From positions 1 through 64,000 of the forward strand of contig JBEIJY010000007.1 of the NCBI GenBank assembly GCA_040380025.1: a stretch of 64,000 nucleotides of DNA, written 5' to 3'. Below are positions 1 through 22,047 of the stretch, one piece after another; position 1 is the first letter of the stretch; each line of letters starts with the position of its first letter. Below the pieces are notes generated by a model that was not told the DNA's origin, ran no database searches, and worked only from the letters and a program-made list of their open reading frames with translations. This DNA is from Bdellovibrionales bacterium (GTDB lineage: Bacteria > Bdellovibrionota > UBA1018 > CAIMNF01). Position numbers and translations under genes: made by a program.

Positions 1-108
1 CTCGCTTTCGCGCGTCACGCGCTCGCGAGAGTCGGCAAAAATAGAATGATTCCAACCCCCTCTCCCCATCCCGCTCCTGAATCAAGCACAATCAAAGGGG
101 GCAGTTTG
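1..108 (-). mobile_element. MITE/REPIN-like palindromic element, copy A (partial, cut by window edge)
   Basis: Reverse complement reads CAAACTGCCCCCTTTGATTGTGCTTGAT...TTTTTGCCGACTCTCGCGAGCGCGTGACGCGCGAAAGCGAG, colinear with the copies at 3614 and 20908. It ends 5 bp from the stop codon at 114-116. Confidence 0.8.
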
Positions 109-113
109 TTGAG

Positions 114-860
114 TCAGACCAGATTCTCGGCAAGACAAAGCTCACGGAACGGAAGAACCCGCCCGCCTTTTTCGGCAGATCCATGATCGGCGGTACCGAG
201 ATGAACCTGATACACCCGCGGAATCGCATATCGCTCCTGATAATAGCGAAGACTCGGCTGAAGCGACCGCTCGCCGGTTTTGCATTCCACTGCGAATACG
301 GGTTTTTTATCCCGGGTCACCACAAAATCGATCTCTCTTTTTTCGGCATCCTGGATGTATCGAAGTTCCATGCGATGCCCCTCGGTGTCCTCTTTGAAAT
401 GGCAGTACTTCAGCAGGTGCGAGGCCACGAGATTCTCGAATCGCGCTCCCTCGGTTTCGGCCTGCGACCAGTCCCATAAAAACAACTTTTGTGTTTTTTT
501 CACCGCTTTTGCCCGGTTTTTCAGAGCATAGGGAGCGATCCGGTAACAAAAATACACGCTCTCCAGGAGCGAAATCCAGCGCTCCACCGTGTGCGGCGAT
601 ACGCCAAGATCCTCCTGCAAGCTCTTGATCGAAAGCGGAGCGGCCACCCTGCCAAACAGAAGCTCCACCAGCAATTCGACCAGACTGATGTCCTTCACCG
701 TCGAAAGATCAGCCAGATCCTGGGTGGTCACCCTCGCGACCAGCTCTCTCTGCCAGCGTCGCAGATGGGTCTCATCGGCCTTGGAATACGGTTCCGGAAA
801 TCCACCAAACTGCAAAAGACGATTCAAATCCGACGACAAGAGCTTTGGATGGATCTCGGA
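114..860 (-). pseudogene. 5'-truncated AAA+ ATPase / DUF4143 family gene (C-terminal ~250 aa only)
   Basis: Contains the family's C-terminal motifs (FGGFPEPY, KAVKKTQKLFLWDWS, GARFENLVASHL, KREIDFVV, AVECKTG). No Walker A (GPRQxGKT-type) or Walker B upstream; the upstream sequence is a palindrome and the 3' end of the neighbouring gene. Confidence 0.65.
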
Positions 861-2160: not shown

Positions 2161-3567
2161 TTAAAGCACGCGGATCGGATTCGAGATCACCCAAGGATAG
2201 GTCTTCCGGGAGAGGCGCTCCGAGCGCGATTCGCGCTTAAGATGCAAGGGAATGATGAAAATCTCAACCCGATAATGGCCGGGCGCCGCAGGAACATGCG
2301 AGAAATCGGCTGTTTGGCCGGTCAAAATACGGGTTTCGACACCTTCCGGATTGACGTGGATCAAATCGGCGAAGATCTTGGGGCGATCTTCGGATCCGAT
2401 CGGAGCGAGCGGCGAATGAACCGAGGGGATTCGGATCTCGAGCACCGGCGAGGATTTCAACGATGCCCCTCCTCCCATCCCGGTCCGGACCGCGGTGCCG
2501 GGCTTCCTTCCCCGAGAAAGGGCAAAAAAATCAAACCCTGCCGGCGTGCCCAGCACCTCGAACACACCGAGCACCCTGCCCTCCCGGATCGCGGATTTCG
2601 CCGAATCCGGGGTCAGGTCGGGTGCGAGAATCCAGTTCGAGAGCTGCCCCAACATGCGACGATGGGAGTCCAATCGGAGCCCGTCCTCGGCCTTCATGCG
2701 AAACACATTCTGATGCGAGTCGATTCCGAGAACACCCGTCACGTGTCCGAAGCGAGAAAGGAGTTTTGCCCATTTCTCGAAGTACACCGGACTCAGCTTC
2801 AGGAACTCGAGCACGAAAAAATCCGGATTCGCCCAGCCGACCGGATCGAACAGATACTTCAGGAGACCGCCCATGAACCAAGACTCGCCCAGATGGTCTC
2901 TTCGAATCAACGGATGCCCCGAAGCGTGAAGATTGAACACCTCGATGAAATCGGGCTTCAGCTCGTACAAATACTCAAGACTCCGACTCTCGGTGTGAGG
3001 CACTCCGACGACCGCTCCCGTTTCTTTCTCGAACAGGAGTTTTGCATCGTTTTTTGCCGATCCCCCGCTCTCCATCACCTTGCGCCACGAGGAGTCATCC
3101 CGCCACTCCATTCCGAGCCCGAGAAGGGTCCCCTCTAGGCCGGGCATCAAATAGGGCCGAAATCCGTTCTCGCATCCGATCCGGATGGCGATCTCGCGGC
3201 CCTTCGCGGTCCGCACCGCAGAATCCTTCGGCCCCTTCAACAGAACCGCCGGATACGTCGCCTGTTCGAGCTTGTGCGGATGATCCGTCAGAAACGCGAA
3301 ATCGAGGTGGTTCGCACAAATCGCGTCTTTCAGGTCACGCTCGCACTGCGGGTTGATCGACCCGTCCGGATTGAGCCCCTTGTCGTCGCAAGCGTCGTAC
3401 GAAAACGGCCCATGAAGGTGCGTCTGCACCCGAAACCACCGCTGCCCCTTTGGGACCGGAAGCCCGAGGAGGTCAGGGAGCCCTGCCCTTGGCTCGCGAA
3501 GAGCAAAGGCGGTGGCTCCAAGCCATAGGCCCGGAGCGAGACACAAAAGAATCAACCATGACCTCAT
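2161..3567 (-). CDS. Secreted PHP-domain metal-dependent phosphoesterase-like protein
   Basis: Signal peptide; HLHGPFSYD, AFLTDH, PHTE, IEVFNLH and GIDSH motifs typical of the PHP fold. Confidence 0.75.
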   Translation of the reverse strand: MRSWLILLCLAPGLWLGATAFALREPRAGLPDLLGLPVPKGQRWFRVQTHLHGPFSYDACDDKGLNPDGSINPQCERDLKDAICANHLDFAFLTDHPHKLEQATYPAVLLKGPKDSAVRTAKGREIAIRIGCENGFRPYLMPGLEGTLLGLGMEWRDDSSWRKVMESGGSAKNDAKLLFEKETGAVVGVPHTESRSLEYLYELKPDFIEVFNLHASGHPLIRRDHLGESWFMGGLLKYLFDPVGWANPDFFVLEFLKLSPVYFEKWAKLLSRFGHVTGVLGIDSHQNVFRMKAEDGLRLDSHRRMLGQLSNWILAPDLTPDSAKSAIREGRVLGVFEVLGTPAGFDFFALSRGRKPGTAVRTGMGGGASLKSSPVLEIRIPSVHSPLAPIGSEDRPKIFADLIHVNPEGVETRILTGQTADFSHVPAAPGHYRVEIFIIPLHLKRESRSERLSRKTYPWVISNPIRVL

Positions 3568-3613
3568 CCAGACGAGGATATCTGACGCCGATCAATCGAG
3601 GCAAGTGCCGATC

Positions 3614-3815
3614 CAAACTGCCCCCTTTCATTGTGCTTGATGGGGCAGTGGGATGAAGAGAAGGGACTGGGATGATTCGGTTTTCCCCGACTCTCGCGAG
3701 GCAGGATTGCCGACAGCGAGGCCGCAGGACGCGGCTCGGAGGGGAAAATCGAATTATTCCAATCCCTTATCTTCATCCCTCGGCACAAAAAAGCACAGGC
3801 AAAGGGGGCAGTTTG
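3614..3815 (+). mobile_element. MITE/REPIN-like palindromic element, copy B (202 bp)
   Basis: Termini CAAACTGCCCCCTTT...AAAGGGGGCAGTTTG; inner 39-bp arms 3650-3688/3741-3779; conserved core 3689-3740; flanks GTGCCGATC (3605-3613) / GTGCGGATC (3816-3824), an 8/9 direct repeat. Confidence 0.85.
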
Positions 3816-3822
3816 GTGCGGA

Positions 3823-6171
3823 TCAGGCTTTCGCCGATTCGGTTTTTTTCTCGGGACTCGGGACCCTCGACTCGATCACAAAGTGCGGGCGGTCGTCCTT
3901 CAGAACCACGCGCACGGCTCCGCCGTTCTCAAGTTTTCCGAAGAGGATTTCTTCTGAAAGCGGCCGTTTGATCTCGTCTTGGATGACCCGCGCCAGCGGG
4001 CGCGCTCCCATCTTCCGGTCATAGCCCTTCTTGCCGAGCCACTCTCGAACGGGTTGCTCGAGCTCGATCTCGACGTTCTTCGCGAGGAGCAAATGCTCAA
4101 GCTCGACGATTTGTTTGTTCACCACCTGTTCCATCATCCGCTCGTCGAGAGGGTTGAAGAACACCGTGGCATCGAGGCGGTTCCGGAATTCCGGCGAGAA
4201 CGTGCGCTCGAGCTCTTTTTGCGAAGCTCCCGCTCCGCCCGGATCATTCTGGAATCCGACCGCCCTGCGCTCTGCATCCCGCGAACCCACGTTTGAGGTC
4301 ATGATGAGAATGATATTCCGGAAGTCGGCTTTTTTGCCGTTGTTGTCGGTCAAAAAACCGTGATCCATCACCTGGAGCATGATGTTCCAGACACTCGGAT
4401 GGGCTTTTTCGATCTCATCCAGAAGCACGACCGAATGCGGGTTTTTCATTGCGGCATCGGTCAAAAGCCCCGCCTGCTCGAACCCCACATATCCCGGAGG
4501 CGCGCCGATCAGGCGCGAAACGGTGTGCTGCTCCATGTACTCAGACATGTCGAAGCGAAGGAAGGAAACCCCGAGATGGCTTGCAAGCTGTTTCGAGAGC
4601 TCGGTTTTTCCGACCCCGGTCGGCCCGCAAAACAAGAACGATCCGATGGGGCGATCTCCGGTGCGCAAGCCCGAACGCGCAAGACGGATCGCCGAGACGA
4701 TTCTCTCGATCGCATGATCCTGCCCAAAGATCGTGAGTCGCAAGTTCCGATCGAGCGCCTGCAGGCGGTCTTTTTGGTTGTGGGTCACGGTTTTCGCCGG
4801 AATCCGCGCCATTTGCGCGATCATTTCCTCGACCTCGATTCCGGTGACCAGAACGGGCGCCGCCGGATCGACGGGCTGTTCTTGCACCCGTTTGATCCGG
4901 AGCTTTGCGCCGACCTCGTCGATCACGTCGATCGCCTTGTCGGGCAAAAACCGGTCGGTCAGATGCTTCACCGAGAGCTCGACCGCGGATTGAATCGACT
5001 CGGGGGTGTAAATGACCCCGTGGTGCATCTCGAACTGGGGCTTCAGTCCGTTCAGGATTTGAATCGTTTCGTCCTGGGTGGGCTCGGGCACGTCGATTTT
5101 TTGAAACCGCCGCGAGAGCGCGAGATCGCGCGCAAACGAGCTCCGGTACTCCTGGAATGTGGTCGAACCGAAACACCGGATCTCGCCGCGTGCGAGCATG
5201 GGCTTCAGCAGATTCGCCGCATCGACCGTGCCGCCGTTCACCGATCCGGCCCCGATGATGGTGTGAATCTCGTCAATGAAGAGGACGGGGAACTGCCCGC
5301 GCGAGTGCTTGGTCTCGAGCGCCTGAATGACCCGCTTCATGCGTTGCTCGAAATCCCCCCGGAACTTCGTTCCGGCGAGAAGGGCACCGAGATCGAGCGA
5401 GTAAATCACCGCCTCCCGAAGCAGATCGGGCACCTCGCGGTCGACGATCTTTTGCGCAAGACCTTCGGCGATCGCGGTCTTTCCGACGCCGGCCTCACCG
5501 ACCAGAAGGGGATTGTTCTTGCGTCTGCGGCAAAGGGTTTGAATGACCCGATCGAGCTCCTGTTTTCGTCCCACGAGGGGATCCAGTCGCCCGTTCTTCG
5601 CCAGTTCATTCAGATTCACCGTGTAGCTCGAGAGCACATCGTTCATCGACGCTCGGTGTTCGCTTTGCGGCTTCTGGCCCGACGCAGGTTGTTCTCCCGA
5701 CTCGGATTGAGACGCGCTCGAGAGATCCTCGGACGCTCCCTGCCCGTGACTGATGAAGCTCACCACTTCAAGACGATCAATGCCCTGCTGATTCAAAAGA
5801 TAGAGCGCCCAGGAGTCTTTGGCCTGAAACAGGGCGACAAACAAATCCACGGGTTGGATCTCGGTTTTTCCCGAGGACTGCACCTGAAAGATTGCGCGCT
5901 GGACGAGCCTCTGGACGCCCAAAGTCGCGATGGGGTTTTCTGCCTCGCCCTTTTCGGTTTTTGGCGCAAGCGGCACCTCCTTTTGCAGGTACGCCTTCAC
6001 GTCCTCACGGAGCTTCTCGACTGATCCTTTGCAGTGCTGGACCACCTGCACCACCTCGGGCTCATCGAGCAACACGGCCAGCACATGCTCAAGCGTCAAG
6101 AACTCGTGCTTGCCCTCGACTGCGGCCGACAGAGCCCGATTCAATACTGATTCCGCGCGTTTCCCGATCAT
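3823..6171 (-). CDS. clpA: ATP-dependent Clp protease ATP-binding subunit ClpA
   Basis: Clp N-domain, two AAA+ modules ([16 protein letters not shown]), RFDMSEY motif, no ClpB middle domain; directly downstream of clpS. Confidence 0.95.
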
Positions 6172-7801: not shown

Positions 7802-7975
7802 GCCTGAATCTCGGATTGCCCGAAACCATCCCGCCCCGTGAGGGCCCCACGAATGCTGGATGAGGCTCTCGCGAGCCAGGATGGCGAAAGCGAGGCCGCA
7901 GGACGCGGCTCGCCGAAATCCAGCATTCGTGGGGCCCTCACGGAGCGGGATGGTTTCGGGCGAACTGATTCAAGC
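7802..7975 (+). repeat. Core-bearing hairpin element lacking the family TIR (copy C2)
   Basis: 44-bp arms 7818-7861/7918-7961 (43/44 complementary) enclosing CTCTCGCGAGCCAGGATGGCGAAAGCGAGGCCGCAGGACGCGGCTCG. Confidence 0.85.
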
Positions 7976-18828: not shown

Positions 18829-19533
18829 ATGGCAAAAAAGAAAATCCAGAAAAAGACCGCTGCGGTCAAAAAATCCGCGGCAAAAAAACCAGCGGTTAAG
18901 AAACCAGCGGTTAAAAAAGCAGTCAAGAAAGCAGTCACCACAAAAGCGCCCGCAAAAAAGACCACAGCGAAGAAGACCGTAGCAAAAAAACCTGTCGCTA
19001 AAAAAGCGGCTGCTAAAAAACCTGCCGCAAAGAAGACCGTCGCGAAGAAACCGGTGGCGAAAAAAACCGTAGCCAAAAAAACCGTGACCAGTAAAACAGT
19101 CGCGAAAAAAGCGGCCACCAAAAAACCTGCCCCGAAACCAGTCCCCGTGAAGACCGGGACCCCTTCGGTCACCACCTCTCCAACCGGCGCCGCCACCCTT
19201 GCAACGGCAATGGCCGCAACCGCCGCCGTGGGAGCCCTCGGAGCGAACCTCGTCGGCGAGGGGCATGATGCCTACGATGACGATCAGGAACTCGGCATGG
19301 AGGAGACCTTCATCGAAGACGAAGAATCCCTTCAGGACCCGTCCGACGAGGATGAAGAAGACGAGTACTACACCCGCGGGTTTGACGAGGAAGAGGAGTC
19401 CGAGGACTTCGAATCCGAAGACCTGAGCGAAGAGGATGAAGAAGACTTCGAGCTCGACGAAGAAGAGCTCGAAGAAGACGAAGACATGGAATTCGACTCG
19501 GACGAGGACTTCTCGGACGAGGACGAAGACTGA
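18829..19533 (+). CDS. Histone H1/Hc2-like protein with acidic C-terminal tail
   Basis: Strong SD; (T/P/A)(V/A)AKK pentapeptide repeats (~41 Lys in the first ~108 aa), Ala-rich linker, ~56 Asp/Glu in the last ~91 aa. Confidence 0.85.
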   Translation: MAKKKIQKKTAAVKKSAAKKPAVKKPAVKKAVKKAVTTKAPAKKTTAKKTVAKKPVAKKAAAKKPAAKKTVAKKPVAKKTVAKKTVTSKTVAKKAATKKPAPKPVPVKTGTPSVTTSPTGAATLATAMAATAAVGALGANLVGEGHDAYDDDQELGMEETFIEDEESLQDPSDEDEEDEYYTRGFDEEEESEDFESEDLSEEDEEDFELDEEELEEDEDMEFDSDEDFSDEDED

Positions 19534-19582: not shown

Positions 19583-20899
19583 ATGGATATCCGAGACGTG
19601 ATCCATGGTGTAATCCCGATCGAAGCGCATGAGCTCCCGGTTCTTGAATCGTTCTTGTTCCAACGACTCCGGCAGATCCGGCAAACCGGCTTCGCCGAGC
19701 ACTCCTACCCGGGCGCCACCCACAACCGCTACATTCACAGCATCGGCGCCCTCCACACCATCACCGAGACCTTTGAAGCGATCTTCTCGGGACTGAAGAA
19801 AAAGAAATACCCGCTTTGGAAGCGCTTTCGCGCTCTTGCGCGCCTGTCTGCCGCCCTTCATGACATCGGCCACGGGCCGCTCTCCCACACGACCGAGTTC
19901 GCGATGCCCGAGGTCTCCAAACTCGGCGCTCGCTTCGGATCGAAACGAAAAGCCACCCACGAGGACTACACCCTCAAAATCATCCTCGACTCTCCCCTTA
20001 CCCCCGTCCTCGAAAAAGCGGGCGAACCGTTTGGTTTTGGTCCCCTTCACATCGCGGCGCTGATCGATTCCGGAATCAAACTGAACGAGGATTTTTTCAT
20101 CGAACGCATCGAGGGCGAGAAGCTGAACTTCCGCCCGGTTTTGCACCAGCTGATTTCGAGCGAGATGGATGCGGATCGCATGGACTACCTGAGACGCGAC
20201 AGCTTTTACTGCGGCGTCAACTATGGGGTCTTCGACTACTCCTGGATTTTGCGGAACTCCTGCGCACACACCAAGGACGGAAAAGTATATCTTGCGATCA
20301 AACACCGCGCGCTCTACGCCTTCGAGGACTTCCTGCTCGCCCGCTTCAACATGTTCCTGCAGGTGTATCTACACCACAAAACGGTCGTGTACGACGAGAT
20401 GCTCGCAAACTACCTGAACGACCCGTTCTGCGACTACAAGCTCCCGGCCGACATCGAGACCTATGCCCGTTGTACGGATGCGCACTTATATGCCCATCTT
20501 GCACAGTCCACGAACCCCTGGGCCAAACGAATTGTCGAAAAACAACCCTTCAAGATGTTCATCGAGATCCACAGCGGGATTCCCTCGACCGCGAATGCAC
20601 GGGAACAACAAGAACGGCTGTTCCGGAAAGCGCGGGCCGAACTGGAGTCGCGCGGCATTCCCTACATCGAGAACACCTCGACCGGGATCCTGTCCAAATA
20701 CTTTGGCCGGTCGGATCATCCGATTTTTGTCAAATACGACAACCTGTATTCGGATCCGAGCTTCATTCCGCTCGAAAAATGCACTTCGCTCTTCACCCAG
20801 TACCCGAATTCGCGCTCGATCTCGCGGCTCTTCGTTGCGCCCGAGGATCATCAAAAGCTCGTGGGCCGGAAGCGCGATCACGCGATCCTGTTCGAGTGA
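19583..20899 (+). CDS. HD-domain phosphohydrolase (dNTP triphosphohydrolase/SAMHD1-YwfO-like)
   Basis: RDVIHG, FQRLRQIRQ, YPGATHNRYIHSIG, LHDIGHGPLSH, DADRMDYLRRDS, QVYLH. Confidence 0.9.
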   Translation: MDIRDVIHGVIPIEAHELPVLESFLFQRLRQIRQTGFAEHSYPGATHNRYIHSIGALHTITETFEAIFSGLKKKKYPLWKRFRALARLSAALHDIGHGPLSHTTEFAMPEVSKLGARFGSKRKATHEDYTLKIILDSPLTPVLEKAGEPFGFGPLHIAALIDSGIKLNEDFFIERIEGEKLNFRPVLHQLISSEMDADRMDYLRRDSFYCGVNYGVFDYSWILRNSCAHTKDGKVYLAIKHRALYAFEDFLLARFNMFLQVYLHHKTVVYDEMLANYLNDPFCDYKLPADIETYARCTDAHLYAHLAQSTNPWAKRIVEKQPFKMFIEIHSGIPSTANAREQQERLFRKARAELESRGIPYIENTSTGILSKYFGRSDHPIFVKYDNLYSDPSFIPLEKCTSLFTQYPNSRSISRLFVAPEDHQKLVGRKRDHAILFE

Positions 20900-20907
20900 A
20901 TCTCAAC

Positions 20908-21110
20908 CGAACTGCCCCCTTTGAGTGTTCCTGATCAGTACGATGTTTCGGGAAAGGGGGTGGGAAACAAAAAGGTTTTGCCGACTCTCGCGAGCCAGGA
21001 TGGCGAAAGCGAGGCCGGAGGACCCGGCTCGGAGGCAAAAACATTTTTGTTTCCCACCCCCTTTCCCGAACCACGGTACCGGATCAAGCACACCCAAAAG
21101 GTGCAGTTTG
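20908..21110 (+). mobile_element. MITE/REPIN-like palindromic element, copy D (203 bp) with 9-bp target-site duplication
   Basis: Termini CGAACTGCCCCCTTTG...CAAAAGGTGCAGTTTG; perfect 27-bp inner arms 20947-20973/21044-21070; conserved core; AATCTCAAC on both sides (20899-20907, 21111-21119); lies between convergent stop codons. Confidence 0.88.
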
Positions 21111-21114
21111 AATC

Positions 21115-22047
21115 TCAACTCGGAAGATTCGCCCGATACATCAGTCCTTGGGCATTCACGCGAAGATCCAGATCCAGAAGCCCGAGCTCCCGCTCATCGA
21201 GGCGGAATCCCTGACTCTGAAAATACTCGCTCACCCACGCCCGCAGGAGCCCGCAGGTCCGGGCCTCCGACAGCCCCTCGTTCCTGATCCTCGTCAAAAG
21301 ATCCATCGAGAACCGGAGCTGATCGCGAAGCATCGCCAGCATCCTCGGATGCTCGCTCTTCGGAATCATGCCGAAATGCGTGGGCGCGATCCATGCCGGA
21401 GCAAGCCGCTCGATCCAGTCCAGGGTGGCGAGAGCCGCCTCGCCGTCAAAATCAGTGGGAGAAGTCGAAACGAGCGCCACCACCCCGTGCTTTGCGTTCA
21501 GCACCGGGTACGAAACGCCGCAGGAATCGCCTGTGAACAAGGTGCGTGTCAGGGGCTCGAACACGACCAGATGATGGTTCGCATGCCCGCGGGTATGGCG
21601 GATCTCGAGCTCCACCCCCTGAAAAAACAAAGAATCCCCGTCCTTCAGCACCTGCACCCGCTCCTCGGGGCAAGGAAGAATCGTCCCGTAGAGTCGTTGC
21701 ATGAACTCTTCGCCATACACCGCTGTCGCACTCGCCACGAGCTTCGAGGGGTCGATCGCATGGCGCGCGGCCTTCGGGTGCGCAAAGAGCCTTGCGTTCG
21801 GAAAGGTCTTCAAGAACAAGCCGGCTCCGCCCGCATGGTCAAGATGAATATGGGTCACGATGAGCCCATCGACTTGCTCGAGCGAGAGTCCCTCGGCATG
21901 CACGGCCTTCACGAGCTCCGGCAGGGCGTGATTCGTGTTGCATTCGACAAACATGGCCCGCTCGCCGCGAACCAAAAGGTAAGACGCCGCAAATCCCGGC
22001 TCGACATAGTTGCAATCCACCGTGATGATCTTCATCATGGATTTCAT
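21115..22047 (-). CDS. MBL-fold metallo-hydrolase
   Basis: THIHLDHAGG, TRGHANHH, LFTGDS, PTHFG; start at 22047, 22038 or 22035. Confidence 0.9.
   Translation of the reverse strand: MKSMMKIITVDCNYVEPGFAASYLLVRGERAMFVECNTNHALPELVKAVHAEGLSLEQVDGLIVTHIHLDHAGGAGLFLKTFPNARLFAHPKAARHAIDPSKLVASATAVYGEEFMQRLYGTILPCPEERVQVLKDGDSLFFQGVELEIRHTRGHANHHLVVFEPLTRTLFTGDSCGVSYPVLNAKHGVVALVSTSPTDFDGEAALATLDWIERLAPAWIAPTHFGMIPKSEHPRMLAMLRDQLRFSMDLLTRIRNEGLSEARTCGLLRAWVSEYFQSQGFRLDERELGLLDLDLRVNAQGLMYRANLPS

Follow-up and report, generated by a model that had tools for sequence, protein, structure and literature searches.

The locus studied here raises the question of what is served by two small hairpins that present GGA loops at the tip of a repeated element. 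The preliminary description, made from the letters of the 64,000-nucleotide stretch of DNA under analysis (below, the window), had taken them for a selected RNA or single-stranded DNA structure, possibly a mobile dual Csr-binding module or a transposase recognition site. The window represents contig C7 of genome G000 (2.35 Mb, 53 contigs), and the core motifs are present in its sequence where they had been placed. So are the C-G to G-C swap in hairpin hp2 of copy D relative to copies B and C2, the absence of GGA from hairpin hp1 of copy A, and the CTCGC/GCGAG pairing, which in copy B forms stem P2 (3693-3697/3716-3720) with a GA/GACA internal loop in both the sequence and the fold. Upon folding, the GGA strand of copies B, C2 and D forms the described three-way junction (z = -3.46, -3.86 and -2.96, respectively), composed of a basal stem, of P2 with a GA/GANA internal loop under hp1, and of hp2; the opposite strands give z = -2.85, -2.72 and -1.97. 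Below both hairpins there is an extra GA/GA internal loop together with a T / TC junction that does not vary. The hairpin pair is a genuine motif with a conserved fold, and it forms the apex of a mobile element of ~200 bases (Table 1).

Table 1. Coordinates of the element copies, their parts and two related hairpins (window positions unless a contig is named).
Feature	Position	Strand	Remarks
Copy A	1..108	-	A single end repeat (84-107) and a single arm; GGA absent from hp1
Copy B, left target-site duplication	3605..3613	+	8/9 letters identical to the right one
Copy B, whole MITE	3614..3815		Terminal inverted repeats 3615-3638 and 3791-3814; long arms pair within the copy
Copy B, core	3685..3744	+	Basal stem with GA/GA loop, three-way junction, P2, hp1, hp2; from sequence, fold, parse and covariation
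Copy B, CTCGCGA	3693-3699	+	Sequence
Copy B, hp1	3700-3711	+	GGC-AGGATT-GCC; folds as GGCA-GGAU-UGCC
Copy B, GACA	3712-3715	+	Sequence
Copy B, GCGAG	3716-3720	+	Sequence
Copy B, hp2	3721-3735	+	Loop AGGAC
Copy B, right target-site duplication	3816..3824	+	Overlaps the stop codon of a ClpA-like gene (3823-6171, minus strand)
Copy C1	7721..7792		72-bp end-repeat hairpin, core absent; at the stop of a T2SSE/CpaF-type ATPase gene
Copy C2	7811..7968	+	Core 7860-7918; arms without end repeat
Copy D, target duplication	20899-20907 and 21111-21119		Perfect, 9 bp
Copy D, whole MITE	20908..21110		Flanked by convergent genes; plus-strand core at 20979-21037
AUGGAY-loop hairpin (locus L153)	G000, C26:3486-3611		30.1 bits with RF01731
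AUGGAY-loop hairpin	G000, C29:about 1-180		

The copies in the window differ in completeness and setting. Copy A, which comes after a DUF4143 ATPase-type gene, is truncated by the contig start so that its hp2 is missing; copy B has its GGA strand antisense to both flanking genes, which lie on the minus strand; and the arms of copy C2 have no other match in G000. Elsewhere in the window, an open reading frame at 18829-19533 contains 15-bp repeats rich in lysine and alanine, and it resembles a histone H1-like protein that has an acidic tail.

A core profile built from three window copies gave 91 matches in the 2.35-Mb genome at E<=0.2 (113 listed at E<=10), nearly all of them intergenic. Anchoring succeeded for 88 cores, 73 of which were parsed completely, while the remaining 15 are truncated, degraded or of a longer type; the tail 3' of hp2 reads ATG instead of TCG in 6 of the 73. 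Two copies on contig C40 (12600-12854 and about 2420-2545) have the loop of hp1 replaced by a ~60-nt multi-hairpin insert with an additional AGGAY hairpin, which has no further match in G000 or in the retrieved loci. A 24-letter matrix of the end repeat finds 139 sites in G000 relative to none in a shuffled genome, and 44 inward-facing pairs of these sites are mostly 197-204 bp long. A 9-bp target duplication, one base outside the end repeat, is identical at 9/9 positions in four of these pairs, at 8/9 in two and at 7/9 in four. Duplications of at least 7/9, among them those of copies D (9/9) and B (8/9), are therefore found in 10 of the 44 two-ended copies where ~0.002 are expected per element, and are absent in the other 34. 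Cross-element target duplications comprise no exact case and seven with one mismatch (1.3 expected).

A probable source of these ends is found in the relatives, where 23 of the 61 genomes surveyed contain a single-ORF IS1-like transposase that weakly matches an IS1-type HMM (E 1e-10, under the family cut-off). At many of the 28 loci shown this gene lies inside a ~1.03-kb element with the end repeats of the short element, and at two of them (L200 and L185) a 9-bp duplication is readable around the autonomous IS at the same offset. Since the autonomous IS has the same ends and the same 9-bp duplication, the ~200-bp elements are very probably MITEs of this IS1-like insertion sequence, and the shared ends and duplication length suggest that they are mobilised in trans by its transposase. 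Thus the mobility proposed earlier for the core-bearing element is borne out by end repeats, by target duplications and by an IS with matching ends. The core also caps unrelated long hairpins (C2 in the window and, in other genomes, hairpins in unique DNA or at the 3' ends of tRNAs), and end-repeat elements without a core exist (e.g. C1).

Several further features of these elements were seen. At C12:43757-45071 and C5:99902-101244 of G000, IS1-like transposase genes lie between two end-repeat modules of ~190-200 bp, with both start and stop inside the repeats. Several IS copies (loci L179, L181 and L201) have a TGGCAC-N-TGC-like motif before the start codon that resembles a sigma-54 promoter, and several autonomous IS copies in relatives begin directly after a stop codon. 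At C22:16895, C1:133324 and C15:53649 of G000, two arms of different types are joined at the core, reflecting either recombination through the core or assembly chimeras. Finally, two short Y1/RAYT-like genes of G000 (C13:34583-35182 and C25:18404-18889) each have an element behind them, and homologues of these genes occur in 40 of the 61 genomes.

The fold also proved to be conserved beyond the window. In a first alignment of 34 rows both sides change in 11 of 20 pairs, and among 74 distinct cores of other genomes they do so in 17 of 20, counts that are overstated because the 74-row alignment was fitted to the model and relatedness was ignored. In the 74 cores 94.7% of the pair cells are paired, compared with 29.9-49.3% in slid controls. 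A second line of evidence is the strand on which imperfect pairs are tolerated. On the GGA strand the ratio of G-U to A-C is 24:3 cells in the cap (only 6:3 distinct types), 70:31 in the arms of 47 G000 copies and 180:103 in the arms of 67 copies in relatives. The selected single-strand fold that had been proposed is thus supported by covariation, which persists in the larger alignment, and by a G-U wobble bias on the GGA strand.

As to which ligand reads this fold, the earlier reading named CsrA, and csrA is indeed present in the host, where it is located between flgL and fliW. This presence is not discriminating since 59 of the 61 relatives also have csrA, as do 137 of 151 phylum genomes. 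The core occurs in 11 of 150 phylum genomes and in none of 15 csrA-negative genomes (scanned without a positive-control genome), a co-occurrence that is uninformative because only about one core is expected among the latter. By reading, ANGGA hairpin loops, which are typical of the leaders of CsrA targets, are found in three of the eight flagellin leaders of G000 (contigs C15, C28, C30, C37 and C2), and CsrA of Bdellovibrio bacteriovorus is reported to repress a flagellin leader (PMC13443453).

Genome-wide conservation of the GGA loops, the lack of which would speak against the preliminary description, is seen in other genomes but only in part in G000. In G000, GGA is present in 47 of 73 first loops and 49 of 73 second loops, with 36 of the 73 cores having it in both and 13 in neither. 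Eleven of these 13 GGA-less cores form one subfamily with GTGAC and ACGAC loops, and the arms of the GGA-less copies are paired as well as those of other copies. In other genomes GGA occurs in 71 of 74 first loops, surrounded by variable letters, and in 63 of 74 second loops; 60 cores have it in both and none (0/74) lacks it in both, part of this set having come from a pattern that admits only GGA or CGA in hp2. The motif A(N)GGA is found in 62 of these 74 second loops, and only 45 of the 74 first loops have it and, with it, the 5' A that CsrA needs. According to PMC4005645, RsmE binds AGGAX pentaloops that have a C-G closing pair with an affinity in the low micromolar range, weaker than for ANGGAX by one to three orders, and the bases of the A(N)GGAX motif are irreplaceable. 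Given this low affinity and these irreplaceable bases, the core would be a weak CsrA site at best, and no site in the 13 GGA-less G000 copies.

The orientation of host genes does not single out the GGA strand either. With our own hexamer-based gene calls (2148 genes in G000), host genes read into 24 copies only on the GGA strand and into 23 only on the other, indicating that the GGA strand is not favoured by host read-through. No sigma-70-like promoter is found at 3300-4200 around copy B, and no consensus promoter or terminator at copy B itself. An RNA sink for CsrA is also not required by the host, since it has FliW, a protein antagonist. The CsrA reading is plausible, yet it is weakened by the loss of GGA and by the random orientation of copies, and we consider CsrA a possible ligand of the core, at slightly less than even confidence.

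The explanation that we favour as a whole, with our confidence evenly divided for and against, is that the core is a TwoAYGGAY-like passenger module in a MITE and a weak dock for CsrA. Under this explanation a compact TwoAYGGAY-like module would ride as a passenger in a ~200-bp MITE which the IS1-like DDE transposase moves through its ends alone, the surviving copies being those located at gene stops. The GGA strand would at times be produced as RNA, and its two C-AGGAY-G loops could then offer a low-affinity, two-site dock for the host CsrA dimer, so that the dispersed copies may form a weak sink for CsrA, or 3' structures that respond to it. The constraint would have been relaxed in one subfamily of G000.

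The strongest competing explanation, which we regard as somewhat unlikely, is that a factor other than CsrA reads the core on the element's own single strand, be it the element's own transcript or a strand-specific single-stranded DNA intermediate. In that case the C-R-N-GA-Y-G loops would form the signal together with the GA-rich junction, and this signal would serve the element itself through arm matching or through spread onto new hairpins. This is congruent with the finding that the invariant part of the loops is GA and not GGA, with GA at loop positions 3-4 being near-invariant (72/73 in hp2 of G000; 74/74 and 73/74 elsewhere), and with the recurrence of ACGAY and GTGAY substitutes in distant genomes, ACGAY being found in 9 of the 74 other-genome cores and in several lineages. 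It is also congruent with the behaviour of the arms, which pair well within a copy (median 0.88 in G000 and 0.75 in relatives) yet hardly align between copies (0.55 and 0.45, relative to 0.42 upon shuffling).

The strand evidence points the same way. Even copies that are read into only on the opposite strand have their wobble bias on the GGA strand, both in G000 (19:8 in 12 copies) and in relatives (67:32 in 21 copies, with rough gene calls), and the bias is independent of replication, as cores have no replication-strand bias (32:25, with 29 ambiguous, in G000). At tRNA-adjacent two-hairpin loci the GGA strand is antisense to the tRNA in 9 of 9 cases, which involve five kinds of tRNA and include several orthologous loci, out of 42 loci and 40 G000 tRNAs checked; four G000 tRNAs have a single look-alike hairpin downstream on the sense strand. 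Because the wobble bias is independent of neighbouring genes, the replication strand is neutral and the tRNA-adjacent cores are all antisense, polarity looks intrinsic to the element, and an intrinsic polarity requires either an own transcript or a strand-specific single-stranded intermediate. Against a non-CsrA factor, GGA is the dominant loop outside G000, and the wobble bias is weak or absent in convergent copies (12:11 in G000 and 12:10 in relatives) and in the divergent copies of relatives (12:15). In addition, there is no candidate protein: among 39 proteins (Pfam) neighbouring distant low-copy cores there is no conserved neighbour gene and no recurring mobile-element or nucleic-acid enzyme. 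A broader form of the same idea, which we think unlikely, is that TwoAYGGAY-like cores are first of all polarity-defined recognition modules of selfish elements and not host regulators. A non-CsrA factor would read the R-N-GA-Y loops and GA junction on RNA or single-stranded DNA and copy one arm onto the other, the core could colonise any long hairpin (IS ends, tRNA 3' ends, unique DNA), and the likeness of GGA to a CsrA site would be due to mimicry or would be a by-product.

A further alternative, in our view improbable, takes the element for a common hairpin MITE whose action on the 3' ends of mRNAs is by termination, RNase III cleavage or stabilisation, with the core being a relic that once had a function and is kept uniform by gene conversion. 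Elements do lie at gene stops: in G000, 64 gene ends are no more than 60 nt away from one of the 139 end repeats, mostly at -17 to +3, gene contexts are convergent in 18 of 50 cases, and a symmetric hairpin would function in both orientations. Differing core types on near-identical arms (three pairs) and chimeric copies likewise fit gene conversion. Against this account, changes in the stems are compensated from genus to genus and from family to family, with loops and junction constant, and the wobble bias does not reverse with the direction of read-through.

Finally, in regards to the transposase recognition site of the preliminary description, the core is very improbably the site of either the IS1-like DDE enzyme or a Y1/RAYT-like HUH protein. 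In favour of such a site, both Y1-type genes of G000 have an element behind them, the C5 IS1-like gene lies between two core-bearing copies and core counts are highest in genomes with several IS copies. Against it, a model search of 60 loci that surround IS1-like or Y1-type genes yielded just three cores, of which two flank the C5 transposase and one is >1 kb away from the gene. No autonomous IS contained a core, nor did any of the 30 Y1-type loci, a set outside which falls the C25 Y1 gene with its core-bearing copy. The core is also missing from the element behind the C13 Y1 gene, some genus members in which no core was detected (G008, G014 and G015) do have Y1-type genes, and end repeats such as those of C1 do without a core. 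Because the autonomous IS lacks it, the core is not the recognition site of the IS1-like transposase, and the DDE-enzyme version of this reading is largely refuted.

These results matter beyond the single locus. The function of TwoAYGGAY has been unassigned since 2010 and a 2026 preprint leaves its spread and the link between mobility and Csr open, and the present core family offers a concrete route of spread, a MITE and a matching IS1-like transposase. It also offers a natural experiment, in that a single genome combines comparable arms with cores that have GGA in both loops, in one or in neither. The CsrA proposal already known for the parent motif is directly testable here. If CsrA binds, then docking sites for a global regulator are being spread by a transposon; if it does not, then a ligand other than CsrA has to be sought for motifs that have long been read as CsrA sites.

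Among known systems, hairpin-forming bacterial MITEs include Correia/NEMIS, ERIC, RUP and YPAL/RU-2. Compared with these and with IS1-family insertion sequences, the shared features are the lack of coding capacity, end repeats, a target duplication, a cognate transposase that would act in trans, a long RNA hairpin and a placement at gene ends. The differences are that the arms vary between copies yet pair inside each, that there is a conserved, asymmetric folded cap that is missing from the parent IS, and that the transposase scores under the IS1 family cut-off. REP/REPIN sequences with RAYT are comparable in that hairpin repeats lie near a Y1-type HUH gene in G000, but here the duplications are of 9 bp, the ends are of DDE type and, in a search for the core alone, no core was found beside Y1-type genes of relatives. 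Compared with CsrB/CsrC/RsmXYZ, the core has AGGAX pentaloops closed by C-G, which are the RsmZ SL3/SL4 site type (PMC4005645), and two sites that fit a CsrA dimer. It differs from these RNAs in having two loops per copy scattered over ~90 copies, in that no promoter, terminator or Rfam Csr/Rsm match was found for it, and in the partial loss of GGA.

Our literature search, which covered mostly openly accessible work, found nothing on a MITE-borne CsrA module of this core family, and the main text of PMC5737381 has no mention of CsrA or GGA. Database records with the same core are labelled Bdellovibrionales. A loose pattern scan of genome contigs matched at least 75 stretches; among the matches listed, those outside the full-scaffold records labelled Bdellovibrionota or 'Proteobacteria' lacked paired arms and were discarded as chance matches, as were two viral ones.

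The closest known relative is TwoAYGGAY (RF01731), a motif described by Weinberg et al., 2010 (PMC2864571). PMC4333381 proposes that it binds CsrA, and a mobile two-hairpin Csr module or sponge has already been proposed in print (PMC4333381; Li et al., bioRxiv 10.64898/2026.09.22.753630), with Li et al. leaving the mechanism of expansion open. In an Rfam scan of window positions 1-22000 and 10 related loci only tRNAs scored over threshold, with no Csr/Rsm match over the core. RF01731, at its threshold of 43 bits, matched no core copy there or in G000, where its sole match (30.1 bits) is another element and not a core copy. AYGGAY in both loops occurs in none of the 73 G000 cores. As its loops differ in length from those of the motif and no copy is recognised by the Rfam model, the core is not classed as a TwoAYGGAY member. 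Intermediates nevertheless exist. AUGGAU is found in hp2 of 2 of the 74 other-genome cores, single AYGGAY loops occur in bridge copies, and distant model matches have AUGGAU loops on the core's scaffold. In G000, two long hairpins with AUGGAY loops lie directly behind tRNA-Arg and tRNA-Pro, antisense to the tRNA. Conversely, rows with AGGAC and ACGAU pentaloops occur in the supplementary alignment of Weinberg et al., 2010 (PMC2864571).

Both motifs have a pair of successive hairpins that share a basal stem of low conservation (fold and covariation here), tandem GA in the stem (here GA/GANA and GA/GA loops conserved in alignments, their pairing geometry being deduced from them), GGA loops closed by C-G, many intergenic copies in widely differing numbers, and CsrA as a proposed ligand. 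The core differs in having mostly AGGAY/ACGAY pentaloops or NGGANW in place of AYGGAY, a tighter junction, and hosts in the Bdellovibrionota, and in that the present analysis supplies end repeats, target duplications and an IS that matches. We are fairly confident that the selected fold is related to TwoAYGGAY. The core probably also works like that motif, and on its sequence it looks like a compact pentaloop variant of TwoAYGGAY that the Rfam model misses.
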